DNA from: Macrostomum lignano
Lineage: Eukaryota
Length of the DNA stretch: 64,000 bases
Assembly: GCA_002269645.1 (NCBI GenBank)
Contig: NIVC01002120.1
Span: 1 to 64,000, forward strand
Reading direction: 5' to 3'
The number at the start of each line of letters is the position of its first letter. Position 1 is the first letter of the stretch. The notes under the pieces are model-generated. The model did no database searches and was not told the origin of the DNA. It saw only the letters and a program-made list of their open reading frames with translations. A program made the translations under genes and the position numbers. This document shows positions 1-16,279 of this stretch, piece after piece.

Positions 1-1474
1 GATTTCCAATGGGAAGATGACCCGATTATTACAAAAAATTCCGAAGGAAGGGGCTGTATTGTAGAGGTGGATTTGCAATATACTCGGAAGCAAAAGCAAA
101 AACATATAAATATCCTTTAGCTCCAGAGCATTGTTCAGTTAATGAAGATGATTTATCACAAACACAAAAAGATTATCTTAAAGCAGATAATGCAAAACAT
201 CTAGCAACAAAAAATTAATATTAAATTTACATGATAAGAAAAACTATGTAGTGCATTATAAGCTTCTACAATTTTATGAAAAGCAGGGATTAAAAGTGTC
301 TAAAGTACATCGAACAATATCGTTTATTGAGGAAGATTGGTTAGCTAAATATATTGACTTTAATTCAAATCAGAGACAGATGTCAAAAACAAATTTGAGA
401 AAGATTATTGGAAATTAATGAATAATGCTTTTTATGGAAAAACGGTTGAAAATATTAGAGATAGAACCCAATTCCATTTAGAAAAGGATATTGATAAAGC
501 AAAGAAATATTTCTCAAAACCTAACTTTAAAGACTTTATAAAATTTGATGATAACTTTATGGGTATTCATATGAGAAATAAAACAACAAAATTTCTTAAA
601 CCAATATTTATTGGAATGGTTGTTTTAGATTATGCAAAGCTAGTAATGTATGAATATTATTATGATGTTATAAATAAAACATGGCCAGATAACTATCCAA
701 TATATGCAGACACCGACAGTTTGGTATTTAAGGTTGAAACAGAGGATCGGGCAAAGCCCGCGAACCAAAGGTTCGATGTCTATAAAGATATGGAAAAAAT
801 TAAGGATACATTGGATACCTCCGACTATCCGGATAACCATCCTTTAAAATCAGATCAAATAAAAAAGTTGTACTTAAAATGAAAGATGAATTAAATAGCA
901 AAATCATAACCGAGTTTATAGCAATAAGATCAAAATGCTATGCATTTAAGGTTTTAGGACAGGAGGGAGAGGTAAAAAAATAAAAGGGGTATCAAGAGCA
1001 GCAGTAAAAAGATAACATTTGATGATTATAAAAACGTACTTTTAGATTACCTTAATACAATTGAAAATTATCATGCTCCACAATATCGATTAAATTCAGA
1101 TAAGCATCAGATGTTTGTCATCGAGACAGATAAAAAAACATTAAGTCCATTTGATGATAAAAGGATATTTAGATGATAAAATTAAAACATATCCATATGG
1201 TTTAAAAGAAGAGATAAAAAATATGATAAAAGATAAAAAACAAAAAGAAGATATAATAAGTAAATATAATGAATACAAAGCGGCAATAAATAATTATTAT
1301 TACGATTGTGATTGTGAATCCGAATGTGATTGTGAATATAATACATTTCTAGAATATGAAAAAGATATAGATAATTATTATTCAACATTTCCAAAAGAAC
1401 TTAAAAAATTAAATAAGGAAAAAGTCTTGAATAACTGGAAGAGATTAACAGAAAAATTACTTATCGGTCTGTAA
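1..1474 (+). pseudogene. polB: Protein-primed family B DNA polymerase, C-terminal part, with multiple frameshifts
   Basis: Motifs NNAFYGKTVEN and YADTDS in ORF 418-882. Reading continues across single-base slips as KMKDEL..ITEFIAIRSKCYAF, then SPFDDKR/YLDDKIKTYPYG (ORF 1151-1474). Confidence 0.9.
745..777 (+). repeat. 30-bp double-hairpin element, copy in polB
   Basis: gat CGGGC-aaa-GCCCG c GAACC-aaa-GGTTC gat. Confidence 0.9.
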
Positions 1475-1815
1475 AAAACTAAAGCATGTAATTGTTTGAG
1501 CAAATCATTAACTTCAATTTCATATATTATTGAGCACCAATTATCCTCACAGTCGGCAGGGTAACTTAAACAATCCTTTATTTTTTTCCTAAGTTTTTTT
1601 ATTTTTCTAACCAATCTATCTATTTCAATTTCAATTACTATTTCAGCATAAACAATATCTTGTCTTAAAAAACGTTTTCTTTTATCTATCTCATATCGGA
1701 TGGGAAACATATCGTCCCCATACTCATGATATTTCTGAGATATAATTATATTTATTTTTTTATTAATATCATTAAGTTCACGCTCTTTAGTGATAAGGAT
1801 TTTTATCGTATCCAT
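1378..1815 (-). CDS. Hypothetical viral protein, 145 aa, Lys/Ile-rich, probably coiled-coil
   Basis: ATG-started ORF in the AT-rich element, converging on the polB end; no recognisable motif. Confidence 0.5.
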   Translation of the reverse strand: MDTIKILITKERELNDINKKINIIISQKYHEYGDDMFPIRYEIDKRKRFLRQDIVYAEIVIEIEIDRLVRKIKKLRKKIKDCLSYPADCEDNWCSIIYEIEVNDLLKQLHALVFYRPISNFSVNLFQLFKTFSLFNFLSSFGNVE

Positions 1816-2726
1816 TTTCTTATAAAAAATTTACTTATTCGTCGTCATCCTCCCAAACAGCCGCCAATTTTACAGTCCTATCACTCTTTTTATTATTTGT
1901 TTGTTTTAGTTTAAATTGCAATCCACCCTCGTTGCAGTATTTCATAACAAACGCTTTAGGTTTATTAATAACTAAAACAGGAAAATTTTTAACATCATCT
2001 CCGCTTAGACATAAAATTTTTTGCCCATCTAATTGTAAAAATATGATTGAAGCCCAATAAATTTAACCTGTCTCAAACATACAATATTATATTCTTTATT
2101 CTCCAACATATTGGGTGTGAGATAATTAATCACATTAGAATCGGTTTTGAACCAGCTCTCCATTTTTAATCTAAAAAAATAACAAAAAAATGAAAGACAT
2201 TTATGTTTGTAATAAATGTAATGTGACTATGCACAGAGGCAAACAGCAAACGGAGATATATATCATATGTGTTATTCATGTTCTAAAATATATCAATTTG
2301 AAAAAACAAAAAAGATTGAAAACTCATATTACTATTTTAAAAACACAATTTTAAGAAATCTTACAAGAGACATTTCTGATCCAATTTTAATTCCCGGAAA
2401 TAATGTTTATTTATATAATAACTTTTTCCATTTAAATAAAGGAAAGGGATTAAGTTCGAAAGACCGAAAGGATTTTAATTTTAGTTGGATATTATTTCAA
2501 TTTTCTTATTCGAGAGAATACAAAGTTTATAAGGATAGGTAACATACCTAACGAAATGTTACTGAAAAAGTCATTGGAATTTTTATGTATTGATAAAAAA
2601 TTTAAACCTAGATCAGAAGAGAGTTACCACTTTGGGAAGAATATATAACATATGCATTAAAAAACTAAACAACATTAAGTTCTACGCACTTCCTGACCGC
2701 GGCTTTGTGCCCCAGTAGCAATAGTT

Positions 2727-3309
2727 TCAGGTTCGTAAATGCCTAATGTTTCTATCGGTGGAGCTTTGGGTTTGTCCAACTTCTTTTAATTCCATATCGG
2801 TAAAAGTTTCAACATCTAAAATTCTATTTCTATCTTTTAAATATTTTTCATATAATTCAACCGCGGTTGATAATTCATGAATCGTTATCTCTCCGTCATC
2901 CAATATTTTTTGCACATATAAATATAATGATTTTTATATTGTTGCAACATCTCTTAAGATTTATATTTTCCTTTCTTTTTTTAAGATATAATTTAATTGC
3001 TAAAAGTATTGATAAGTTTCTGATCAATTCAAAACCTGATATTGAGCCAATTGAAATACCTAAAAATAATTGAGATAAATTAAGAGTTGGAATAGATTGT
3101 AAAATACCTAAAACGATTACACATAACATTGATAAGCTTCCAAATCCAATATTGAAAAAATCCATATTTCTTATATGGTTTGAAACTCTTCTTACTTTTT
3201 TAGTATATAAATCATAATCATAATTTATTCGATCAACATTACTTAACATCTGACCTTTACGTTGGTTGAACCGGTCGCGTTCCCATTTATCTGCTTCAGA
3301 TACCGACAT
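2727..3309 (-). pseudogene. Membrane protein of the element (two hydrophobic segments, then ILDDGEITIHE), split by one frameshift near 2900-2915
   Basis: ORF 2896-3309 holds the TM segments. Overlapping ORF 2727-2915 continues as QKILDDGEITIHELSTAVELYEKY. Confidence 0.55.
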
Positions 3310-3622
3310 TCTCGTCTATTTTTAATAGCACCAAAATGAATTCCCCACGCTCTTTGGGGATTTGTCCCGAGCTCAATAGGTATTGTATTGGAGTTATTCT
3401 TTCTTTTTTCTCCCATTTAAATCCTATTTTCCAAAACTCTTGAAGTATAATATGATTTTTTAATAACTTAATTAATTCTTGAAGCTTCTTATTATCCTGA
3501 ACATTTACAGTACTAAATAAAAATTTGGTATGAGATTTGAATGTTTTTATATTTGATTCTTGTTTAGGAATAGGAATAATAACATTATTTTGCCGCATCG
3601 ATGGAGTTCTACTAAAAGCCAT
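3296..3622 (-). CDS. Hypothetical viral protein, 108 aa
   Basis: ATG in the TATATAAAATG context shared by the element's genes. Confidence 0.55.
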   Translation of the reverse strand: MAFSRTPSMRQNNVIIPIPKQESNIKTFKSHTKFLFSTVNVQDNKKLQELIKLLKNHIILQEFWKIGFKWEKKERITPIQYLLSSGQIPKERGEFILVLLKIDENVGI

Positions 3623-3637
3623 TTTATATATAAATAT

Positions 3638-5682
3638 TTAAGTTATTTCGGTTTGTGGCCGTTCCAAATATGCGGTCGCAGCAAAATCATATCCTGCTGA
3701 TGTGCTACCACAAACGGCTGCACCACGAATAAAATGTGCAGCATCCGATCCTCCAGTTCGAGCACCAAAACCCATAAGAGTTCCCGTTTTATCTAAATTC
3801 CCCAAGTTCCGCTATCATATGTAAAAAAGTTTTGCCCAATTAGCGTATATGTATTAGCTGATACATTGTATGTGCTTATTTGATACCAAACTCTTTGATT
3901 TAAAATATTAATTTCAAAAAGATGCCAATCGCCGTTATCAATATTAGCATAGGTTATAGTTTGATCTGCGTCATTAAGAACATCATTACGAACTGTTGCT
4001 CCGTCTGATTTTATATTGCTCCAAACAACCCCAACTCTATCATGCCATTCACTCGCAAACACAATCAAGCCGGCGCGGGTTGTTAACCCGGATCCAAATT
4101 CACTTGTTGGACGTTCGTGACAATATGCATAAAACCAAACAGCGTCAGCTCCATCTCCTGTAGCATTAGCAACTCGGAAATAGAAGGAGGCGGAGATATT
4201 ACGAAAATGGGTGAAATTAAATTGCAACGCTCCAGACTGACCACTTGCTTCATCAGTAATTCTAACTCCATTTTGATAATCAATATAAGTAGCGCTACCA
4301 ACAAAACTTCCAGTTGGAAAAATATCACCGGCTGTGGTTGGGTTTTGATATCCAGTCCAATTGCAAATTACAGGCTCGTACAAAGCGGCATCGATTGCAG
4401 GTATTCCATCCAATTTTATTTTATCGTTAAAAGACATTCGGCCATCCGCCGTTTGTGTTACTCGCGTATCAACATAACCTTTAGTAACAACAGAACTGTT
4501 ATTGTTTATAGTAGAGATATTAGTAATTGTATTACCTCCCATATCAATTGATTGATTAACCACTCCCAAATTTAAATCAAGAATTGTAAACGTCTGTCTA
4601 TAAATCTGGAAGGTTGACAGACCCGGGTTGGTTGAACCCGAGGTTGATGTAAGACAGAACAATCTGAAATATGAATATGTTTTATCAAAATTTTGTGTGA
4701 CATTAATTGTTTGAGTTGAGTTATTTATTGCTACAGAACTATCCGCAGGTATTAATACGTCCCAACTTGTATTGTCATTACTTCCCTCAAATCGCCATGA
4801 TGCTGGGTGCTCGGTTGAAGGTGATGGCCTACCACGTAAATCAATTTTATAACACATTATTGCGGAAGGGCATTGGACTTGAATCCAATAATCGGTTTGA
4901 GTATTATTTGTTGCCCAATCTGTTGAATCATTTCCATCAAACGCTTTCCAACTTGCAAAATCAGTTGTATTAAATGCAGTGCTTGCGGTTATTGCAAAAC
5001 CATTTCCACTCCAATCTGCCATGGTAGGTATGTGACCAGTTTCAACCGTTTGGAATCGATCTTGTTTTGGGGCTCCACCCCCAACTAAATTATCAACCTC
5101 CGTTTTGGTATAGGAATCAGTTATATCTCTTTTTAAATTTAAGGAATTATCAACTTCAGTTTTGCTATAAGAATCAGTTATATCTCTTTTTAAATTTAGG
5201 GAATTATCAACTTCGGTTTTGGTATAGGAATCAGTTATATCTCTTTTTAAATTTAGGGAATTATCAACTTCAGTTTTGGTATAGGAATCAGCAACATTCC
5301 GTTTTAAATTTAGGGAATTATCAACTTCGGTTTTGGTATAAGAATCGGCCGTATTGCGTTTTAAATTTAATGAATCATCTATTTGAGTTCGAGAATAAGA
5401 ATCAGTTATATCTCTTTTTAAATTTAACCCATTGTCAACCTCTGTTTTTGTATATGAATCGGCTACGTTCCGTTTTAAATTTAGGGAATTATCTATTTGA
5501 GTTTTGGTATAGGAATCTGCAACATTTCTTTTTAAATTTAATTTATTATCAATTTCAGTTTTTTTATAACCTTCATCCTCATTAATATATCGGTTATCTC
5601 CGAATGTAACACTTATTCCACCAGAAGTACCACCACCAGTACTTGATGTTCCGTTCCATGAGGGTGTTCCAGAAAATAACAT
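3638..5682 (-). CDS. Fibre/receptor-binding-like protein: 19-aa repeats, F5/8 type C (discoidin)-like domain, TKGYVD linker, ConA/L-lectin-like C-terminus; one frameshift at about 3800
   Basis: ORF 3793-5682. After a missing G in a G-run the frame continues DKTGTLMGFGARTGGSDAAHFIRG... to TAA at 3638-3640. WKAFDG..T.W..WIQV and WRFEGSND are discoidin-type motifs. Confidence 0.7.
5095..5560 (-). repeat. 57-bp coding tandem repeat, about 8 copies (KRNVADSYTKTEVDNSLNL)
   Basis: The period is visible in both DNA (5111 to 5168) and protein. Confidence 0.95.
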
Positions 5683-5692
5683 TTTTTACTGT

Positions 5693-6163
5693 CTATTTTA
5701 TAGAGTCTAAAATCGTGCCATCGGCACGCATGCTTTGCATGATCATCTTAAATACTTCGGGGTTTACACGAGCTTCATTCGAAAGTCGATATAAAAAATA
5801 CAACGCCGCTTGCCCGCAATAACTTTTATCAAATGTTTGAAATTGTTCGTGATAATCTCCACATAAACGATTTTTAGTATGATTAAATTTATCTTTTATT
5901 TCCTGTAACGGAGGAAGCGCGTATGAATCAAAAAAATAAACAAGTTTTGGTTTTGAATAAACTGCTGACCAATGAACACCATTTTCTTTTGTTGTTTCAA
6001 TATTAACAATGAAACATCCATATTGTGGTAAGTCTTTTATCTCATCTCGCATAACACATCTAAATGGTTTTATTTTTAACTGCCGCGCCCAATTTGTTAA
6101 TTCGATATTGCTTGTTGTGTCTGTTCCATATCTTTGTTTAAAATCATCCCACGTCATGGTCAT
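5693..6163 (-). CDS. Adenain-like cysteine protease (Polinton PRO)
   Basis: NGVHWSAV (His), YFFDSY (Asp), Q..DKSYCG (Gln/Cys) in adenain order. Confidence 0.9.
   Translation of the reverse strand: MTMTWDDFKQRYGTDTTSNIELTNWARQLKIKPFRCVMRDEIKDLPQYGCFIVNIETTKENGVHWSAVYSKPKLVYFFDSYALPPLQEIKDKFNHTKNRLCGDYHEQFQTFDKSYCGQAALYFLYRLSNEARVNPEVFKMIMQSMRADGTILDSIK
5712..5744 (-). repeat. 30-bp double-hairpin element, copy at the protease C-terminus
   Basis: Minus strand: gat CATGC-aaa-GCATG c GTGCC-gat-GGCAC gat. Confidence 0.9.
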
Positions 6164-6164
6164 T

Positions 6165-6377
6165 TTATGTTCCTGAAAAACTTTTGGTTTTAGTTAGTTT
6201 AGTAGGTGTGGGTTTTAACAATTCCTTTCTTATTTTATCAGCTTGTAACTGCCTTAATTTTGCTAGTTCTAGTTCGTAATTATCTTCAGCTTTTTTAACT
6301 TTTTCTGATTGTTTTTTTAGTAAATTATTATTATTATTATCGTGCTTTGCACGCGAACATGTTGTTCGATTACCCAT
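6165..6377 (-). CDS. Small basic protein, 70 aa; N-terminus encoded by a double-hairpin element
   Basis: ATG in TAAAAATG context; sits tightly between the mCP and protease genes. Confidence 0.55.
   Translation of the reverse strand: MGNRTTCSRAKHDNNNNNLLKKQSEKVKKAEDNYELELAKLRQLQADKIRKELLKPTPTKLTKTKSFSGT
6338..6370 (+). repeat. 30-bp double-hairpin element, copy in the small ORF
   Basis: tat CGTGC-ttt-GCACG c GAACA-tgt-TGTTC gat. Confidence 0.9.
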
Positions 6378-6382
6378 TTTTA

Positions 6383-7212
6383 CTATAGGAAACGGACAAA
6401 GTCCGCGAACCTTCGGTTCGATAAAGTTAAATCCTGTTTTATACGTAAAATTACTGTTATTGATTGCCCACCAAAACTTATTAATCTATCGCTTTCATCT
6501 ACAATCCTAATATAAATTGATTGAACATTATATTGATTTAATGGGTAATATATTGGGGTTTGAGGTGATACAATCATTTTCTCTCCAATTGGAACAGCAA
6601 GAAATGGGATGAATAAATAATTCCACGTTGAACCAAAACTCCATTATTATCTGTTATATAACCACCGTTTGAAATGTCGGTTGTTATATTAATTGTATTT
6701 ACTCCACCCTCTATATTTCCAACTGTATCACCGGTGCTTGATGTGGTAACTATTCAGGAATTAAATCCAAGTATGGTTCTGAGTGAATTTGCAATTGTGA
6801 AATCAACCTGATATCCGGATCCTAGTGATAGTGTGAATCTGCCAGACGGTAAATCAACACCTATAACAATTGCTCCTGCTACCCAATCACCATTAGTTGT
6901 TAATTCTCCTTCTATATAAGCATTCAAATCAGTATAGCTATACGCTCCTGGGTTAACGCTAAATGTTGTCCAATTGGCTCCGGAATCTTTAGAATATCTA
7001 AATTGATTATTTGTTGCATTAATTAATTGAGGCATGTTGAAAACCGAAAATAGAATTAAACCTATTTGATAACTTAGGCTTTGATCAAGTTGTAATGGAT
7101 CGCGCAATTGAATCCGTTGCTCGCTGGTTGTCATTATAAACTGTAATGTTGTACTAAATTTTGAATTAGTTCGATCTACCAATTGTTTTATAGCATTTAA
7201 ATTTGTAGTCAT
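6383..7212 (-). pseudogene. Minor capsid (penton) protein, broken by TGA at 6754-6756 and a frameshift near 6610
   Basis: QIGL..FSVFN, NNQFRY, PGAYSYTDLN and TILGF, then VNTINITTDIS, VPIGEKMIVSPQTPIYYPL and IYIRIVDESDRLISF match the Polinton mCP pattern. Position next to the ATPase also fits. Confidence 0.8.
6390..6422 (+). repeat. 30-bp double-hairpin element, copy at the mCP C-terminus
   Basis: aaa CGGAC-aaa-GTCCG c GAACC-ttc-GGTTC gat. Confidence 0.9.
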
Positions 7213-7229
7213 TTTTATAGTGGGAAATT

Positions 7230-7250
7230 AATCGGACGAAGTCCGCGTGC
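7230..7250 (+). repeat. Partial double-hairpin element just past the ATPase stop codon
   Basis: aat CGGAC-gaa-GTCCG c GTGC; the second hairpin is truncated. Confidence 0.75.
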
Positions 7251-8044
7251 TATGTCTCTTCTTCCTCATTATCTTCTTTTATCAAATTTGTTAAAATTCT
7301 ATGTTTCCTTTCTAACCTCGGATTGATATAAATATGTTTGTATTGGCTATCATCCCAAATTTTTTTACACATACTTTTAAATGGTTTTGCATCCAACCCG
7401 GGATTAAATCTAGCGTGAATATTTTGTAGATCATAGTTATCTAAATCAAACATTACACAACAGCTAGCATTCTTTTTTATAATCGATTCTAATTCTCTAA
7501 AGGATTGAGTAAGATAAAAAGCTCCAATTCCATCTCCTCTACCACTAACAAAAATTTCCTTTTGCAATTCTTGATCACCGTCATTAATACAATCATCAAA
7601 AATAATTAGTGTTTTATCATGTTTTGGAATTTGATCATAGGCTAATCGGGTTGATACTCTAACAGTTGGGGCTCGATCGGACGAAGTCCGCGACCCTTCG
7701 GGGCGATCGGTGATGTTTTCTGGCTGTTGTGCCATTGTTTTACATAAATCCTCAATGTCTGCTAGATTAAATCGCGGTTCGTCATCATCCTCATATTGCT
7801 CATATGCTCTTAACATTCTAAACAAGACATCTTTTTTTAATTTGTTTTTTAATCCATGTTTAAGAAATTCATAATATTTTATTCTAGGTTTGTTAGTATA
7901 AATTATTAAATTATTATAGTCTAACATTCCATCTGTTGTTAATAAATCGTAAACAAAGTGTGTTTTTCCTTTACCTGATCCTCCGATTACTAAACAAAGA
8001 AAAGGATCATTTGGAAATATCTTATCGTGTTTTGCCTTTACCAT
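7250..8044 (-). CDS. A32/FtsK-like DNA packaging ATPase, 264 aa
   Basis: Walker A GGSGKGKT, Walker B LIIFDD, and an SGRG...YLTQ motif. Confidence 0.93.
   Translation of the reverse strand: MVKAKHDKIFPNDPFLCLVIGGSGKGKTHFVYDLLTTDGMLDYNNLIIYTNKPRIKYYEFLKHGLKNKLKKDVLFRMLRAYEQYEDDDEPRFNLADIEDLCKTMAQQPENITDRPEGSRTSSDRAPTVRVSTRLAYDQIPKHDKTLIIFDDCINDGDQELQKEIFVSGRGDGIGAFYLTQSFRELESIIKKNASCCVMFDLDNYDLQNIHARFNPGLDAKPFKSMCKKIWDDSQYKHIYINPRLERKHRILTNLIKEDNEEEET
7675..7707 (+). repeat. 30-bp double-hairpin element, copy inside the ATPase
   Basis: gat CGGAC-gaa-GTCCG c GACCC-ttc-GGGGC gat (one mismatch in stem 2). Confidence 0.9.
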
Positions 8045-8095
8045 TTTTAAAGAAATAATTTAAATAGGCGCGATGGTCGGAGACCTGCACTCATT

Positions 8096-9570
8096 TTACA
8101 ATGGCGCGTCCCGAACAATCGTGCCATCAGCTTTAGCAATTGACATATATTCCTCTAGAAACAATACGTGGGCGTCAAGTGCCTGATTACCGGTTTTATT
8201 AATCTCTAACATATAATTAAGTCCAATATTGGCTACGTTTTCTTTCTGTGCCGTTAGATCATAAACAACCACTGGATGAATGTTTAGAAACTCTGTGGGT
8301 GTGTACTGAGGGACGGCATATGCTTCATTTTTGGCATAATCGTGATAATATTTTATAAAATCATTAACATCATTATTTGCAATATTTAGATTAAGAGGAT
8401 CTTTAACCGGATAGTATTGGTCATCAACCTGCAGGCGGATATTCTGAACATTAAACTCGTTAATAGCTGCAGCCGCATTGTCTGTTGCGGTGGCTGCTTG
8501 TTCTGCTATGGCACCGGATTGAAGCCAATATAAATCCCCATTTGCTCTTTTACTCCTTCTATTTGTTATCTTAAACCAAACAAAAATATATCTCACCCGA
8601 CGTTTTGATGTCAGTATTTGCCACTGGAATGAATCCTGGTTATTATTAATGGTTCGCATAAAATGTCGACGATTCAAATAAAATATTTCCTGATCATGCG
8701 TTAACTGATTATCGATGTGTTTTAAAAGTGGGGCTGTTACCTCAATAGTTGGTACGACTAATTGAATTGAATCTATACGAACTGCTATATCGGTTGAAAT
8801 TGAGGTTCCATAAAGTATCCTAGGCTGATATCCACCAGATATTTGCAACTGTATCCCAAATTTTAATCCTTTCCATACCCGATTTGGTGAAAAGAACCCA
8901 AATAGTGGAAAGATTGAAAAGTCTTTGCTCATATGCTGTTGCTGTGGTTAAAACCGCTACTGGGAATTTATTCTGACGAGCTATAAAACCTGTATTAATA
9001 TCTTTTGTATTAGTCATGGTGGTTACAACTGGAACTATGTTTGTATTAAGGTAAACAATTAGCGCTGCAGTATCTGCACCGGCTGCGTTTTGTACATTAG
9101 GGAAAACTACTGCTTGTCCATTACCCCTTATCAGGCATCCACCCAACACTATCACCAACTTGTTTTGATAAATAAGTATAATTTAAATGTTTCAAAACTC
9201 CATTAATCTCTGCGGGGTTTGATGATGTCTCAACCTCAGCACCATTAACAGTTAGTTGAGCTTGGGAAAAACATTTATAAAACCAATCATTTTCTATTAT
9301 TATTCCGGATCGATCTGCGATATCTCCGGCTGCAAGAGCAGTTCCATCATTTCTAGTATACAACCATCTAACGCGGAAAAACGCATTTTTCATATCCAAT
9401 ATAGTGTTGGTTGCGCCGATGTCAAAAGTTACCGTTCCAGTAGTAAAGTTATTTGAATTATCACTTGTTGGTAGGGTATAATTTAAATCTCTTGCTCTGA
9501 CCTCATTAATATACTGTCGGTGCTTTTTGAAATGAAATTTATCACTCCACATAGTTTTTGTTTCAGCCAT
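8096..9570 (-). pseudogene. Major capsid protein (double jelly-roll), about 490 aa, in three frames (slips near 9123 and 8933)
   Basis: ORFs 9121-9570, 8820-9158 and 8096-8932 join. Motifs FSQAQLTVNG..VE, FPLFGF, IQLVVPTI, RYIFVWF, IRLQVDDQYYP and VYDLT. Size and position next to ATPase/mCP fit an MCP. Confidence 0.8.
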
Positions 9571-9604
9571 TTTTTTAAGTTAAAAAAGTTTTTTATGTTA
9601 AAAA

Positions 9605-10276
9605 ATGAGTCAATTTATGGACGTTGATGGAGAGTTAGCGATTTATAAAGAGAAGCAAAGATATTCTGATTTTGTTAGAAATTTACAAAAAAGAAAGTTA
9701 GGAATACAATTAGCGGGTGAAAGATTTGCTGCTCCTTTTGTTAATCCTATTACTGGGAAAATTAGTGAACTAGAAAAAACAGATAAAGATCTTCTGGAAA
9801 AAATTGCTACGAATACTGAGCCAAAAGAGGATGAAATTTTGGATGAGCCGCCTGCTTATGATGTTGATCAAGCTCAATTGAGAGTTGCAGAGATTAGGGC
9901 TGCAGAAAGGGGTGGAGTTGATGAATATCCGAGAGCTGCACCAACTAGTATTGCTGTGACAGATTTAGGTAATAATAATTATCGAATTGGTGGAGTTGAT
10001 AAAAATCGAAATGAACTATATAGAGAATTGGGCGGAGCATATAATATTATTATGAACCCTAGGGTAAAATTTAACCCTGAATTATATACTAGGGATGAAT
10101 TAGTAAGTGCAAAAATTTTTTATGATGAGTTGGGAGTAAGAGCTGTTAAAAATACAAGTTTGTATAAAAGAATTATTATTTCTATAAATAACAAACCAGC
10201 TGTTGGAGAAGGATTTAAAACACCGCGAAAACTTGTTTTAGCTGCTGCGAAAGCTGCTGGACATACTGGAGTTTAA
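9605..10276 (+). CDS. Hypothetical Polinton protein, 223 aa, divergent from MCP
   Basis: Clean ORF with TAAAAAATG start context; function not assignable. Confidence 0.7.
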   Translation: MSQFMDVDGELAIYKEKQRYSDFVRNLQKRKLGIQLAGERFAAPFVNPITGKISELEKTDKDLLEKIATNTEPKEDEILDEPPAYDVDQAQLRVAEIRAAERGGVDEYPRAAPTSIAVTDLGNNNYRIGGVDKNRNELYRELGGAYNIIMNPRVKFNPELYTRDELVSAKIFYDELGVRAVKNTSLYKRIIISINNKPAVGEGFKTPRKLVLAAAKAAGHTGV

Positions 10277-10304
10277 TTAATTGTTAAATTTATTTTTTTA
10301 TAAA

Positions 10305-10934
10305 ATGGAAACTAAAAAGATTTGTAGTCGATGTAAAGAAGAGAAACCAATGACTAAAGATTTTTTTAGATGGAGAAATGATTCAAAAAAATTTAGAAAT
10401 GATTGTCGATCTTGTGAGAAAGTTATATCAAAACTGTGGAATAAAAACAATAAAGAATATATAAAAAATAAATATCACACTGATGAAAATTACAAACTTA
10501 TTATCACCTCACGAAATAGAATAAATCAACTATTAAAATCAAATAATGCTCGAAAAAATAATCATACTATTGATTACCTTGGTTGCTCAATTGAATTCTT
10601 TATTGATTGGTTAAATTTCACAAAACATTATTATGTTCCAAAAGACTATGGTGGTGCTTTACATATTGATCATTTTATTCCTGCTTCTTCATTTAATTAC
10701 AAAGACGAAGATCATATGAAAAAGTCTGAACATTGGACAAATAAAAGATACTTAGCTGCTATTGATAATAAAACTAAATTTGTTAAACAACCAACAATTG
10801 AAGAATTTGCAAAACAATTGGTGCTATCATGTATTTTTAAGGCTATAAAAAATGAGCAATCATGCGACGCATGCGAACCAAAGGTTCGATCGGACGAAGT
10901 CCGCGTTCCTTCGGAACGATCAATTAGTATTTGA
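10305..10934 (+). CDS. Free-standing HNH/EndoVII-like homing endonuclease with N-terminal Zn ribbon
   Basis: CSRC...CRSC zinc ribbon; YLGCSIEFF..WL; LHIDHFIPASSF...HWTN...DN. The ATG at 10305 (TAAAATG) is preferred over the TTG at 10281. Confidence 0.8.
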   Translation: METKKICSRCKEEKPMTKDFFRWRNDSKKFRNDCRSCEKVISKLWNKNNKEYIKNKYHTDENYKLIITSRNRINQLLKSNNARKNNHTIDYLGCSIEFFIDWLNFTKHYYVPKDYGGALHIDHFIPASSFNYKDEDHMKKSEHWTNKRYLAAIDNKTKFVKQPTIEEFAKQLVLSCIFKAIKNEQSCDACEPKVRSDEVRVPSERSISI

Positions 10935-12492
10935 AGGAGGATTTTTAGATGTTCAAAAAGGATTAACAAGCTTACCACCAATATTTACTACTGGGAGGTA
11001 TACGGGTGAGCTACACCTACCATCAATGAACTTCACAGGTTATCCCGTGGCCTGAGTGAGGAAGGCAATGTCCTTGCTAGTCACTATTTGTGGCGACATC
11101 TCCAAATTGCGTGAAACCCGTCATACAGCTTCAAGTACCACTTCAATTGAGAAATCTTTTGAACGAACAGAGGTAACTCCTCTTCCCAAAGGTAAAAAGC
11201 TTGAAGACATGGTGGCAATGCGCAGCCAAGCTCCTAAGTATTTTAAATATAAGGAGAAGGTTCAGAGAGCAGACGGAGATGGGCGGTAATTATCGCCGCT
11301 TAAGGTGTGCTCCAGCCTCTTTCGAAAGATTGAGGGTAAACTACCCGGCACTCGCTTAGATTTGAGATTAAATCCTGACAATACTCCAAAATCTGATTCA
11401 ATTCCAATAAATGGGATTGATTGGTTAGCATACTATCACGACTTAGCATATAGAGATGCTGACAAGAACCCGCCCGAGGAAGCATTAAGATTAAAACATG
11501 AAGCCGATCAAAAAATGATTCAAGGATTAGATAACTTGCAGGGATTATCGGTAGGGCAAAGATTAACTAGGTGGATGGTTAAAAAGATTTTGCAGTCTAA
11601 AGTTAAATTTGGTTTGGGAATTAATTATAATCAACATGGAAATAATTGTGTCGAGTGTTTATTATTAAGTGGTGGTGGGTTAAGTTCTGATGAGGCAAAG
11701 ATTCTTCATAAAGAATATCGAAAACCTAAATTTTATAGAAAAATCATGAACTTCAAAAAGAATGAAATTTGGTATGCTGATTTAATGTCGATGCCGAACG
11801 AAAGAGGATATAAATATATCTTAACCATATTAGATGGTTTTACTCGATACGCGTGGGCTGTTCCTTTAAAATCCAAAAAGGGAGAGGAGGTTGCTGCTGC
11901 TTTTAGAAGTCTTGGAGAAAAAAGCGAAAGATTGTGTGTTGATGAAGGAAAAGAATTTTACAATCCTCATATGTATAAATTGTATCATTTTGAAAAAGGA
12001 AAAGAAAGGAAAAAAGACGCGAATGGGGAGTATATTAATAAAATTTATTCTATTTATGGAGAGAGTAAAAACGCATTAATAGAAAGATTTAATCGAACTT
12101 TAGGTAAGAAATTATGGTTTCAGTTTAGTCTTAATGGTAACCAAAAGTGGGTAAAAATATTACCAGACGTAGTGAAAGATTATAACAATTCATATCATTC
12201 AGCTATAAAGATGACTCCTCAACAAGCTTATAACAATCCTGAAAACGTTAAAGTTACTTTTGGAAAATTTGAAAAAAATAAAAAGAAATCTTTTAAGGTT
12301 GGTGATTCTGTTTATATCTATAAATGGAAAGATAAGTTTGAAAAAGGAAGAAAAGGATATTGGAAGATAAGTGAGAAATTTACTATCAGTAAAGTTTTAA
12401 ATACCAATCCTACAACCTATATAATTGCTGATAAGGACGGTGAAGAAATATTGGGTTCGTTTTATGAGAACCAACTAATATCAGCGAACTAA
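10852..12492 (+). CDS. PLA2-integrase fusion, 445 aa after splicing (exons 10852-11040 and 11344-12492)
   Basis: Joining the exons restores ELHLPSMNFTG|PGTRLDLRL...YYHDLAY (parvovirus VP1u-type PLA2). The rve DDE core follows: WYADL, CVDEGKEF, IERFNRTL. Exon 1 is 189 nt and exon 2 is 1149 nt, in frame. Confidence 0.88.
10858..10920 (+). repeat. Two tandem 30-bp double-hairpin elements in the HNH / PLA2-INT overlap
   Basis: aat CATGC-gac-GCATG c GAACC-aaa-GGTTC gat CGGAC-gaa-GTCCG c GTTCC-ttc-GGAAC gat. Confidence 0.92.
11041..11343 (+). ncRNA. Group I self-splicing intron (IE/IC1-like core), 303 nt, no internal endonuclease ORF
   Basis: P1 CAGGU/GCCUG with U.G at the 5' splice site; P3 CATCTCC/GGAGATG; P4 TTGCG/CGCAG; P7 GAGCA/TGCTC; P8 GGCGGT/ATCGCC; P9 with GAAA loop; P9.0 AG/CT. 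Conserved blocks AAATTGCG, GCAGCCAAG, GTTCAGAG and TTAAGGTGTGCTCC. Confidence 0.9.
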
Positions 12493-12502
12493 GTTCGAAC
12501 AA

Positions 12503-12727
12503 TTACTTGAGACAACATGGTAGTAAATTTTTTATAACAAACAAAAACAATATTATTACTATAATTGTTACTAATATTATTATTGACATTTGTTCAACTG
12601 TTATCAAACTTAAATTTTCATTAAGTTCATTAATCGGCACATTTCCGATATAGGAATAGTTTACCTTCATTTTTTTATATATATTTTTCATAATAAAAGT
12701 CGTTTCTGTTATAGAATAATAATTCAT
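12503..12727 (-). CDS. Small protein with one C-terminal TM segment, 74 aa
   Basis: Hydrophobic stretch IIILVTIIVIILFLFVI; TAAAAAAATG start. Confidence 0.55.
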   Translation of the reverse strand: MNYYSITETTFIMKNIYKKMKVNYSYIGNVPINELNENLSLITVEQMSIIILVTIIVIILFLFVIKNLLPCCLK

Positions 12728-12743
12728 TTTTTAAATATTTTTT

Positions 12744-13058
12744 TCACATAAAAATTTCACTTTCATTCTCTGAATCGCTGGTTTCATATGAACTATTTGT
12801 TGATTCGGAATCTGTTGATCTAACCTCCCAATCATCCGAATTTAAATACTCTCCAAGTTGAAATATTAACTCACCCTCTTGTTCTAAATCATACATCTCA
12901 TCTAGCTCTAATGGATAAAGTTTTAGGTCGTGCTTGTCGTCATATTTTAAATAAACTTCATCAATTATTCCATTCAAAATATGTTGTTTTATTATCTCTG
13001 CATTTTTAGCAACAGTCTCAAAAGTATCACTAACAGAAAAGGTGTAAACTCGGGTCAT
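12744..13058 (-). CDS. Small acidic protein, 104 aa
   Basis: TAAAAATG start; acidic Ser-rich tail. Confidence 0.6.
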   Translation of the reverse strand: MTRVYTFSVSDTFETVAKNAEIIKQHILNGIIDEVYLKYDDKHDLKLYPLELDEMYDLEQEGELIFQLGEYLNSDDWEVRSTDSESTNSSYETSDSENESEIFM

Positions 13059-13114
13059 TTTTAGTAACAGAAAAAGACCCTTCGCGCCTGCGGCGCGGGC
13101 AGGGGTTATAGAGT

Positions 13115-13383
13115 AGTAGTATAGAAAAAGACGCTTCTAGATCAGACCTTATTTTAATGGCCGTTTGTAAGGTCTTAAGAGGGGGGACGCGAGGGGGGTG
13201 TTGGGGAGTGTTTGGAAGTGTTGGGAAGTGATTTTTATTGTTAGGGGTGATTATGGGTGATTAGATGTGTTAAGGGTGTTTAGATGTGTTTTTTTATTTA
13301 CCCCCCCGTGTCCCCCCTCTAGACCCTTAAAACGGTCATTAAAAAAGTGCTCTGGGTCTAGAAGCGTCTTTTTCTATACTACT
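13115..13383. repeat. Terminal imperfect inverted repeat: arms about 85 bp, outer 27 bp perfect, G/T-rich spacer
   Basis: AGTAGTATAGAAAAAGACGCTTCTAGA (13115-13141) is the exact reverse complement of 13357-13383. Confidence 0.92.
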
Positions 13384-16279
13384 GGTATTGAGTATGCTCA
13401 ATATATTCTCTGGTAACAAGTAACAATTTCTTGGCTCATAAAGCAGATGGACCCGATTAAATTAAAAAACTAATTTAAACAAAATTTGACGAAATTATCT
13501 TTTTCTATTTTAGATCTACTAAAACAGGCTGGTAAAACAGGAAAAAAACTTGGTGCGCAGAAAAAACATTTATTTTTACTTGTGTACTCATTGCATGATG
13601 TATGATAAGGCCAACCATCAGATTTGACTGCAATCTGCGCCCACTGGGCTGAGGCAAGAAAAGAAGAATTTTTCGCATAAACTACACATGTGGGTTTTGA
13701 CCTTGTTCAGTAGCTATTAAAACACAGCTGTTGAGCCTAAGATATCGGTATTCCTCCCTTTAAGTCAATGGCGTAACCCTAACTCTCCATTTCATCTACT
13801 CGTACCTTTTGGCTTGGCCACCAACAACTTCCAGTTGGCCCTTGGCATCTCAGCGACAGCAATTCCTCCCAAAGTTCCTGGGTCTTGAAATCTCAACAAC
13901 AACACCCGTGAGCCCTTGATATCTCAGCTGTTTATTTGACTATAAATGAAGCAGGGATTTATGAAAATCGACGCCTGCAATTGGATGACTGGACCTTGGA
14001 ACTTGGTTGTCCAATAATTGGTAAATTGGTAGAGTTGCTGTCAAGCTAGCTGGGTAGATCTCAAATTGCCTGGCTGGCCACGTGAGTCACAGGAGTTTAT
14101 TTAGCGGGGCAAGATTTGACTACAGGCAAAATAATATTGGCTGCCCTCCATACGAGTATAGCACACGCACGGGTATGGGTGCTTTAGCCAGTCCCGCGTC
14201 TCCCTCTGGAGGAGCCAACTTGTCCATTATCAAAAGAGGATCTTGTAGATTGAGAGAGAGCCTTAAGGTCGCCGCTTTGCCGGGTTGAGAGGCGGGCAGT
14301 GCGGGTTTTCGCTGGCAGCCGTACTTTTCTCCCAAGCGCCCGCGTGCGTTCACCCGGGGGAAGGTCGCGGGGTAAAGGAGGGGGGGGGAAGAGATGAGGA
14401 TATTAAATCTCGCCCTTCCCTGCCCTGGCCTCTACCGCGCGCTCCCACGCTGGCCAATAAGTTTCCCACACAGCCCTTCACGGCTCTCGTCTCCGTTCAC
14501 CTCTGCCCCCCCCCCTGTACAGCGGAGCCAAGTCAGAGGGCGGGGGCGCAGGCTGGGGAGCCGCATGCAGCGGCAGCAGCAGTACTGTACTGCAGGCATG
14601 CGGGCGGCCCGGGTTAAGCCTACCCCTCCCCCCCCCGCGGCAATGCCTCCCCCTCTCTTTTCTCTCTCCCTCGCCGAGCCACACAACCTCAACAGACGTG
14701 GAGAGAAGCGGAGAGAGAAAAGACAGGAAGGCCCCACAGCACTGCTGAGCAAGGGACGACAAGCTCGACATTGCGCGGGCACGCGACACCCCAACCCCCT
14801 CGCAAGTCACTGCGCCGCATGAGACTCGCATTGATAACTGCTGTGCGCGCCGGATAGCATAAGGACTGGCCTGGTCGGGGCTCAAACCTCAGCTGCGTTC
14901 GACAATTCGAGCCATTCGCAACCAGCAGGAAGACTGCAAGACCGCCAGGGTGAGAGTGACGACTGGGAAAGTCGAGATCGGCTGAAACATTTCTGGTTAG
15001 TCGAATAACTACTTGTGTAACTTTTACAATAGAATATTGAAAGTGATGAAACCCTGGAGCAAAAACAGGGAGCACTCAGAGCGTCACTCCTTTGAGCACT
15101 CCACAGGGCAGTACATGTAGCACTCCGAAGAGCACTCCGAAAAGCACTCCAAGGGGCACTCCAAAAAAGAGCACTAGCTCGTAATTACCAATCAAAAGGG
15201 GCTCTAAAAACCGTAGCGCACCACCTGAGTTCGAGTCCTGCCGCACCGCAGCGGCGCAGTCTCTCAGCTCAGCGTTCCGTTCTTGGCTAGTCGCTCAGAA
15301 AACATTTCTGAGTTCGCTGGCACGAGAGCTCAGTGTTCTGTTCGAGCAAGTCCGCTACAGTTTCTGCTCTCGAAGCTGCAGCAGTCACCGAGCGCACCAG
15401 AATTCTGGCCTGGGGAGGGGCTCTGCAGTTTAACAGAAATTTGCATGGAATCAAAATTCTTCTTCATCAACAGTAAAATTAAGCCTGTAGAATAAGCGGG
15501 TCAGACTGCAGTGCTGCTGCAGTGCAGCCGGGGGCAGGCGGCATCGCTGAGTCATTTCCGCCTCCACTGCGGCCGCTGCATTCTTTGCTAATTCAAGACT
15601 GCTGGCAGCTCGATTTGGATAATTTATATCCATGCAGGGCGGAGACGCTTGCAGTTGGCGCGAGTCCGCCTCCAGTCCTTGCAAAATGCCAATGCCAGCA
15701 GTCCAGAATCCCCTGGCTTGAACTGGCCCGAGAGGGGTTTAATTGAGCAAGCGAACCGGGGCCGATTCCCCAGCTGCATCTCGGCCCGGCAACCCGGCAT
15801 CCGCTAATCTGATTGCCCAGCAGCCACCGCAGGCGGAATAGCAAATTTGAGCGTCCCAGAAGGAACGATCGAAAAAAATGGACCCATCAATTTTTATTCT
15901 TCTCATCATCGCTTTCCACAGGTTTCACTTTCTTAGAAACGGCCAAGGCAGCAGGGAGGCTGGGAGGCCATGACGTCATCGCTCACTCCGCTTTTCTCCC
16001 GTCCCGTCTCTCCCGCCTCATTCCCGCTCGCGTGCTGCCAATGCGGGAAAGCAAAAAACGCTAAGGACGTCTGAGCACCGCAGCTCACCGCCCCCCCGAT
16101 TCCCGCATCTCCACAGGAGGAAAGAAAGGAGAAGAAATCCTTCTGGAGCCCGGGATGGCCTCATCAACTCTAGCCGGCAACTGTCAGCAGCAGAAGCTGC
16201 GATGAGGCGGCCCAGCGCTTCTCGGTAAAAACACTGCAACTGCCGACCCGACGAGACAAGAAGCCCTCAGCTCACCGGC

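Follow-up and report, generated by a model that had tools for sequence, protein, structure and literature searches.

The locus considered here raises the question of why a gene for an HNH nuclease should stand immediately ahead of a group I intron that has no nuclease gene of its own. It lies in a Polinton-like element at the left of the window (the whole stretch of DNA analysed, positions 1 to 64,000 of contig NIVC01002120.1, assembly GCA_002269645.1, deposited as Macrostomum lignano), where the intron interrupts a gene coding for a PLA2 domain and an integrase. The first-pass annotation had proposed a collaborative homing pair, in which the free-standing nuclease cuts intronless alleles and the intron protects the resident one. 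A partnership of nuclease and intron at this site is well supported, but the HNH is neither its sole nor its best-supported member; the sequence evidence for a target at the exon junction points instead to an unrelated, Eco47II-like enzyme that occupies the same slot in sister copies. Taken as a whole, the data are probably best explained by a cutter of GGNCC, an element purged of that site, an intron acting as antidote and the HNH as a rival in the slot. The features on which the argument turns are as follows (ORF, open reading frame).

9605 to 10276, + strand: upstream gene, function not assigned; left border of the exchangeable nuclease slot
10277 to 10304, + strand: AT-rich leader (TTGTTAAATTT...AAAATG), preceding both slot alleles and, in family 2 (a second Polinton-like family of the same genome), the intron-borne ORF; a probable promoter
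10305 to 10934, + strand: HNH (beta-beta-alpha-Me) nuclease ORF, 209 aa, with an N-terminal CxxC...CxxC zinc finger; one of two slot alleles
10852 to 11040, + strand: exon 1 of the PLA2-integrase gene, final codon Gly (GGT)
11038 to 11040, + strand: GGT, left part of a GGNCC split by the intron (right part CC at 11344-11345)
11041 to 11343, + strand: ORF-less group I intron, 303 nt, terminal A; the P7 G-C pair of the guanosine site is present and P9.0 fits the terminal A
11344 to 12492, + strand: exon 2, remaining parvovirus-type PLA2 domain (first residues Pro-Gly-Thr) and rve integrase

Nucleases beside and inside the intron

The arrangement described by the first-pass annotation was upheld. 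The HNH ORF overlaps the ATG of the host gene at 10852 and stops 106 bp ahead of the intron start at 11041. Its assignment follows from PHROG matches (endonuclease VII, E 5.5e-11; HNH, E 4e-5), from residues H123, N146 and N155, invariant across 61 aligned sequences, and from a structural model (mean pLDDT 91.9) containing the strand-strand-helix (beta-beta-alpha) motif, the best viral Foldseek matches of which are Mimivirus L246 and an intron-encoded endonuclease of Bodo saltans virus (the latter E 1.2e-9). A Pfam search of the ORF gave no match, and the model found none in the PDB at E<=0.001, the resemblance to the Hpy99I zinc finger being weak (Z 4.8, root-mean-square deviation (rmsd) 2.8, 42 aligned). 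Set beside the DHHRN family of F-CphI by motif only, the order of its residues is HIDH...N...N. The intron, too, is the ORF-less group I intron that had been claimed: it matches the P3-P9 core of Rfam RF00028 (64.2 bits, E 7e-16, gathering threshold 50), its ends at 11041 and 11343 are fixed by three intronless sister copies, and it contains no ORF for a nuclease, the single reading frame in it, of 73 aa, being a translation of the core itself. A scan of the whole window at the gathering threshold had missed it.

Searches that started from the intron, from the HNH and from exon 2 yielded 157 distinct loci for examination, 145 of them in family 1, to which the window copy belongs, and 12 in family 2; of the 501 candidates in the exon-2 protein search 150 were scored, family 1 being exhausted before family 2 began. 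Eight family-1 loci were dropped (three not covering the junction, two without the slot, three with HNH remnants only). Among the 137 scorable copies the slot holds the HNH in 100 and an unrelated 167-aa Eco47II-like ORF in 37, the two being swapped between identical borders. The intron is present in 134, in the combinations HNH with intron type A (81), HNH with type B (16), Eco47II-like with A (30) and Eco47II-like with B (7). All three intronless copies (L111, L132, L144) carry the HNH, as full-length ORFs in L111 and L132, and that of L132 retains the H/N/N residues. Because the intron accompanies the other nuclease in 37 of 37 copies and the intronless copies carry the HNH, HNH and intron are not tied together, and the co-occurrence that a dedicated pair would imply did not hold up. 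The HNH does have the layout of a collaborative pair, a free-standing nuclease beside a gene with an ORF-less intron, yet it also occurs with the uninterrupted site (3 of 100, two full-length), where allele-specific immunity is possible; the Eco47II-like allele never does so (0 of 37, p 0.56 against the HNH).

No broad linkage block was found around the slot, and variants on either side show little association with the slot allele. The one exception is the GYS type of exon end, which is commoner beside the Eco47II-like allele (15 of 37 against 5 of 98, p 2e-6, a value overstated as the copies are related). A divergent family-1 subgroup (L132:560-1120, L144, L218, L219, L130:771-1238) has a different upstream gene. 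In L130 and L162 the slot contains a piece related to the upstream gene of this subgroup, beside an HNH remnant. A 155-aa ORF there was considered as a third nuclease and rejected, as it matches part of the alternative upstream gene; it gave no usable Pfam, PHROG or Atlas match.

The fold of the Eco47II-like allele resembles PD-(D/E)XK restriction enzymes, with EcoO109I as the best match (Z 8.2, rmsd 4.4, 164 aligned); the known sites of EcoO109I and Sau96I are taken as background, and enzymes of the Eco47II type cut GGNCC. Matches to Pfam RE_Eco47II (PF09553) have E 3.9e-5 and 1.3e-5, with 23.8 and 25.3 bits against a curated cut-off of 25.9, and three of nine homologs carry the domain. Family 2 has a homolog (~57-67% identity) that is carried by a related group I intron, itself inserted at the same codon position; the ORF begins in the loop that precedes P3 and continues into the intron core. 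The enzyme search picked 33 such family-2 loci, of which 27 introns end in G and six are not callable. Among the 12 family-2 loci obtained with exon 2, eleven lack the intron, none of their contigs appeared in the enzyme search, and no HNH was found in family 2. The same intron and enzyme arrangement occurs at the same site in a metagenome contig (L235), independent of this genome; RF00028 scores for the family-2 and L235 introns are 80-89 bits. L235 was the one locus found in metagenome contigs with the enzyme alignment, the PLA2 query found nothing there, and a context search of viral contigs likewise returned nothing. In a tree of 22 rows, rooted at the midpoint only, the free-standing enzyme copies form one clade among intron-borne ones, a topology compatible with escape of the enzyme from the intron. 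No methylase match was obtained among 16 + 22 ORFs (38), a scan in which the element's left end was missing and some small ORFs lay outside.

The HNH family has intron-borne members as well, as read from protein tails. In P0005, an HNH relative from elsewhere (40% identity), and in four listed members of its cluster, the C-terminal peptide matches a translation of the core of the window intron (E 1e-13 to 2e-15; 2 matches in total in 20 shuffled controls, 185 proteins), and the tail recurs in six of 14 further HNH homologs. Core-derived tails in other assemblies indicate that this HNH family can be intron-borne, and since the tail of P0005 is identical to that of an Eco47II-like protein, P0168, the two nucleases probably also exchange inside the intron. 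The tailed HNHs form a clade separate from that of the window HNH. One near-invariant HNH subtype (99.7% aa identity, nine copies) sits on exon-1 alleles averaging 88% identity, which suggests recent spread.

Ratios of nonsynonymous to synonymous substitution rates (dN/dS) are 0.45 for the HNH overall (0.33 in the catalytic part, 0.42-0.62 in the N-terminal part), 0.24 for the Eco47II-like gene, in family 1 and family 2 alike, and 0.06 for that part of exon 2 which codes for PLA2. The enzyme, the HNH catalytic part and the PLA2 exon 2 are under purifying selection. HNH subtypes diverge most in the putative DNA-binding part (dN 0.20-0.24 against 0.09 in the catalytic part). Codons flanking the insertion site are diverse, with a proportion of synonymous differences (pS) of 0.49 on both sides and of nonsynonymous differences (pN) of 0.18 just upstream; pS of 0.41 to 0.49 is found in other windows too.

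GGNCC in the element and at the insertion site

The insertion point of the intron lies in a PLA2 loop, after the Gly codon and before the Pro codon. Gly-Pro codons always spell GGNCC, so the site is unavoidable for the PLA2 protein code, and the flanks join to GGNCC in 110 of 112 type-A introns. Elsewhere the element avoids it. GGNCC is absent from window positions 1-13400, where models expect 7.7 to 16, while the rest of the window has 100 against 118 expected, and Gly-Pro does not occur in ten ORFs (2606 aa) of the element against an expectation of 4.8. In a comparison of 3136 patterns, no other is as depleted as GGNCC, whether in family 1 (0 against 11.7) or in family 2 (1 against 12.1), where the sole site counted is the intron insertion site. 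The GGSCC class is absent away from the junction (0 against about 3.3 and 3.6, by subtraction). Ten further elements were compared over their shared parts: five bearing introns have no GGNCC, three intronless ones of family 2 have exactly one each, at the junction, and two intronless ones of family 1 have one and none besides the junction sites. A third Polinton family (L262:4034-8485, a 4.6-kb fragment, intronless, no nuclease detected) is not depleted, with 16 sites against 9.3 expected, at 11 distinct places, several of them in a short repeat; of four controls tried it was the only usable one, the other three being short fragments. An Eco47II homolog has been assigned GGNCC (PMC10305163), and we infer that the Eco47II-like enzyme cuts the same site.

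At the 5' splice site the exon-end U pairs with the G of a GCCUG guide in P1 (a U.G pair). Of the 113 callable type-A introns, 85 end in A, as does that of the window, a feature that the first-pass annotation does not mention, and 28 in G; P7 is identical in the two, its G-C pair unchanged, and the terminal base shows no association with the slot allele (p 0.23). Between family 1 and family 2, P7 differs at three pairs by compensatory changes. Given the known exception of ND5-717, the terminal A is a variant and does not exclude these introns from group I. The 85 A-ending introns sit on many synonymous exon variants, and behind them exon-2 codons 1-57, which precede the first in-frame ATG, have pN 0.059 against pS 0.356. 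Selection on these codons gives indirect support for removal of the intron from RNA.

The type B intron (~330 nt, e.g. L079:1167-1500) occupies the same 5' site in 24 family-1 loci, including L060, L079, L081-L083, L109, L123-L129 and others. Its catalytic core is unlike that of type A, yet peripheral segments are common to both, as in a chimera; its 3' junction has two bases in excess of the reading frame, and there are two candidate 3' splice sites. The last exon base is C instead of T (GGC) in the intronless family-2 copies (L174-L185 junctions) and in L111. Such an end would be unable to pair as U.G at the splice site, and it is possibly a resistance allele.

Proposed mechanism and rival explanations

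Two Polinton-like families of one genome would thus share a nuclease-intron system centred on the Gly-Pro codons of PLA2. Protection of self would need no methylase: GGNCC would have been purged, and the one unavoidable site would be split by a group I intron that is spliced from RNA. With a single GGNCC per element, an enzyme recognising 5 bp would act as a homing endonuclease. During co-replication the enzyme would break intronless rivals at their single site, and repair would copy the intron together with the nearby slot. In family 2, with the gene inside the intron, this would be classical homing; in family 1, where the gene closely precedes an intron without an ORF, it would be of the collaborative kind, probably following departure of the gene from the intron. 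The intron would be an antidote needed by every family-1 element, whichever nuclease is present, and HNH-bearing elements would retain it as a shield against the GGNCC cutter that sister elements carry. The HNH would be a second selfish nuclease, found in the same slot in most family-1 copies and in the same intron loop in other assemblies, and probably spreads by cutting a longer site nearby; as no short word but GGNCC reaches zero at high expectation, it is taken for a long-site or nicking homing enzyme. Stated in full, with the balance leaning modestly in its favour, the proposal is of a methylase-free restriction system in eukaryotic Polinton-like viruses (PLVs), in which a 5-bp GGNCC cutter would become, by purging, a single-site weapon of homing and competition, with an intron antidote at the Gly-Pro site; the enzyme and its HNH rival would move between intron loop and slot, and many of the introns would splice with a terminal A.

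Several observations weigh against this proposal. The Pfam score of the Eco47II-like protein falls under the curated cut-off, and the difference in intronless copies between the HNH (3 of 100) and the Eco47II-like allele (0 of 37) is not significant (p 0.56). One intronless family-1 element has a second GGNCC site, and GGNCC is present in three of 33 family-2 intron loci. The junction reads GGCCC in all 11 intronless family-2 copies; these may have escaped in part, or the specificity may be narrower than GGNCC, for example GGWCC. Contigs of four of 24 listed runs, of unconfirmed RNA origin, had no joint across the intron, a result that is uninformative. A GGNCC cutter would also cut host DNA, with 100 sites in 50.6 kb. 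Chlorovirus restriction enzymes degrade host DNA during lytic growth; similar degradation here, or silence of the integrated copies, could account for tolerance of such a cutter.

Two of the alternatives concern the HNH. It could itself cut the uninterrupted junction, the intron protecting as in F-CphI/psbA; this is compatible with the purged-site explanation, and we put it at somewhat less than an even chance. HNH relatives with intron-core tails (P0005 and four others, six of 14 further homologs), the presence, near the head of the fold matches, of an endonuclease encoded by an intron of Bodo saltans virus (E 1.2e-9), the high diversity of the codons flanking the site, and the near-invariant subtype on varied exon-1 alleles, as expected of a recent sweep, all fit it. 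However, all three intronless family-1 copies carry the HNH, two at full length and L132 with H/N/N, pS of 0.41 to 0.49 occurs in other windows as well, no short word of family 1 stands at zero as GGNCC does, and the tailed relatives are known from protein alone. The HNH may otherwise be a free-standing competitor for the slot (intronless homing, marker exclusion) that cuts elsewhere, for instance in the rival nuclease or the upstream gene, its closeness to the intron being due to the shared slot. The swapping of two unrelated nucleases between the same borders, the divergence of HNH subtypes mostly in the putative DNA-binding part, the weak association of the slot allele with flanking variants and the existence of intronless HNH-bearing copies bring this close to an even chance, while the relatives of the HNH that reside in introns speak for a target close to the insertion site.

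The remaining two concern the target and the intron. An outside enzyme, of a helper giant virus, a symbiont or the host, could drive both the depletion and the intron position and leave the element's nucleases as passengers or degraders of host DNA. Depletion is indeed found in elements with neither nuclease (the intronless ones of family 2), and PLV methylases have been proposed as a guard against giant-virus restriction enzymes (PMC12220804); even so, the element's own enzyme, of a GGNCC-cutting family, lies inside the intron that splits the site, and the third family of the same genome is not depleted, which makes an outside agent quite improbable. That the terminal-A introns and the integrated copies carrying them are dead relics which no longer splice is unlikely: A is the majority ending among type-A introns (85 of 113) and is found with many synonymous variants of the exons, pN in these copies is 0.059 against pS 0.356 over exon-2 codons 1-57, and ND5-717 of hexacorals splices with a terminal A (PMC6545197). 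On the side of decay stand the window's pPolB region, which is in pieces, the near-universal G at the end of such introns and the lack of a spliced contig in four runs.

The element, its inserts and known systems

The wider setting of the locus comprises the following.

1 to 13383, no strand assigned: right-hand part of an AT-rich Polinton-like element, ending in the reverse complement of an AGTAGT-type terminus; 0 GGNCC
Within 1 to 13383: element genes, namely a broken pPolB region, discoidin fibre, protease-like ORF, A32 ATPase, capsid-like ORFs and PLA2-integrase
10859 to 10920, no strand assigned: two 30-nt hairpin inserts, in frame, lengthening the HNH ORF; present or absent among copies

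On sequence grounds, window positions 1-13383 are a Polinton-like element. Pfam matched the A32 ATPase, discoidin fibre and rve integrase in the window; the pPolB match comes from the family-2 copy only, the window region being in pieces, so that the Polinton markers are rve and A32 in the window, pPolB in family 2 and the one terminus seen. The capsid, protease and terminus labels are presumptive, and profile searches gave the capsid ORFs no confirmation. At 1-1200 the pPolB region is split over several frames, and a fibre-like ORF at 3793-5682 combines a discoidin (F5/8 type C) domain with a 57-bp (19-aa) unit repeated in eight copies. A perfect 27-bp inverted repeat (13115-13141/13357-13383) encloses the final 270 bp of the element, which places the terminal motif twice at this end. 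The remainder of the window is richer in GC than this AT-rich part. FYVE, reverse transcriptase and diacylglycerol kinase ORFs in the flanking DNA indicate that the host is a eukaryote; the diacylglycerol kinase ORF had no PDB match. Of the "animal Polinton" of the first-pass annotation, the Polinton-like nature (rve, A32, terminus) and the eukaryotic host are retained and the animal part went unsupported.

Further 30-nt hairpin inserts lie at window positions 746-777, 6339-6422, 7231-7248 and 7676-7707 and in the P5 region of the L080, L095 and L181 introns. They are in frame in genes, occur also within the intron, and vary in presence by copy. The motif turned up in 36 of the 101 HNH loci, in 16 of the 37 loci with the Eco47II-like gene and in 19 of the 33 intron loci of family 2, and not in three intronless family-2 stretches (L246, L248, L249). 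The idea that the HNH mobilises these elements was set aside: there is no association with HNH loci, and hairpins are frequent at the intron loci of family 2, where no HNH was found. Action in trans is possible.

Homing endonucleases are thought to need long sites for safety. Here a short-site enzyme of restriction type seems to be confined to a single site by the composition of a small genome, and a purged genome would give a group I intron a direct protective function; the system is possibly a new mechanism. GGNCC is in turn a sharp prediction for competition between viruses among the PLVs. Because one genome holds the empty allele, the ORF-less intron with its neighbour and the intron with the ORF, the direction of the proposed route between free-standing and intron-encoded states is testable. 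Nuclear group I introns have been described as confined to the ribosomal DNA of microbial eukaryotes (PMC3679873), with hits since listed in protist PLVs (PMC12220804). For PLVs, collaborative homing has been put forward only hypothetically, with regard to helicase or polymerase genes (PMC11296320, 10.64898/2026.10.13.758929), HNH domains have been described inside Polinton polymerases (10.1101/2023.08.22.554363), and PLA2 genes have been reported from adintoviruses (PMC8502044). A literature search, with most subscription papers and bioRxiv supplements outside its scope, found nothing on an Eco47II-like intron endonuclease, GGNCC purging or this PLA2 intron.

The closest known system is the collaborative homing of F-CphI and the ORF-less psbA intron of cyanophage S-PM2 (PMC6083498, PMC3984707, PMC2988022), which works in the manner proposed here. 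The present system differs in its eukaryotic Polinton-like host element, in the alternation of two unrelated nucleases in one slot, in having free-standing and intron-encoded states of one enzyme in one genome, with a tree that fits escape from the intron, in a likely target that is a 5-bp word made unique by purging, and in an HNH that, by motif only, lacks the DHHRN motif. Type II enzymes of the Eco47II/Sau96I kind (PF09553) and EcoO109I share the PD-(D/E)XK fold, the D...ExK motif and the predicted GGNCC target; in contrast to them, no methyltransferase match was found here (38 ORFs), protection apparently comes from site loss and the intron, and the gene is intron-borne or intron-adjacent.

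The introns of Bodo saltans virus with HNH genes (PMC5871332) are alike in the HNH fold family, in the presence of both ORF-bearing and ORF-less introns and in the proposed interference between related viruses. That virus, however, is a giant virus with its introns in RNA polymerase genes, and the accessible portion of the source mentions no restriction-type enzyme or purging. Integrated PLVs of protists (cryptophyte, rhizarian, chlorophyte) likewise combine RF00028 introns with discoidin fibres (PMC12220804). Those introns are reported as Rfam hits, the cryptophyte ones in a short gene ahead of the capsid gene; Eco47II goes unmentioned in the text and supplement consulted, the supplement lists 51 intron rows, and the rhizarian introns could be of the present kind. 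The hexacoral mitochondrial intron ND5-717 (PMC6545197, PMC8146996) shares the terminal A in place of G. It is an obligatory mitochondrial intron, whereas here A and G endings coexist among viral copies, so that natural terminal-A and terminal-G versions of one ribozyme are available to compare.

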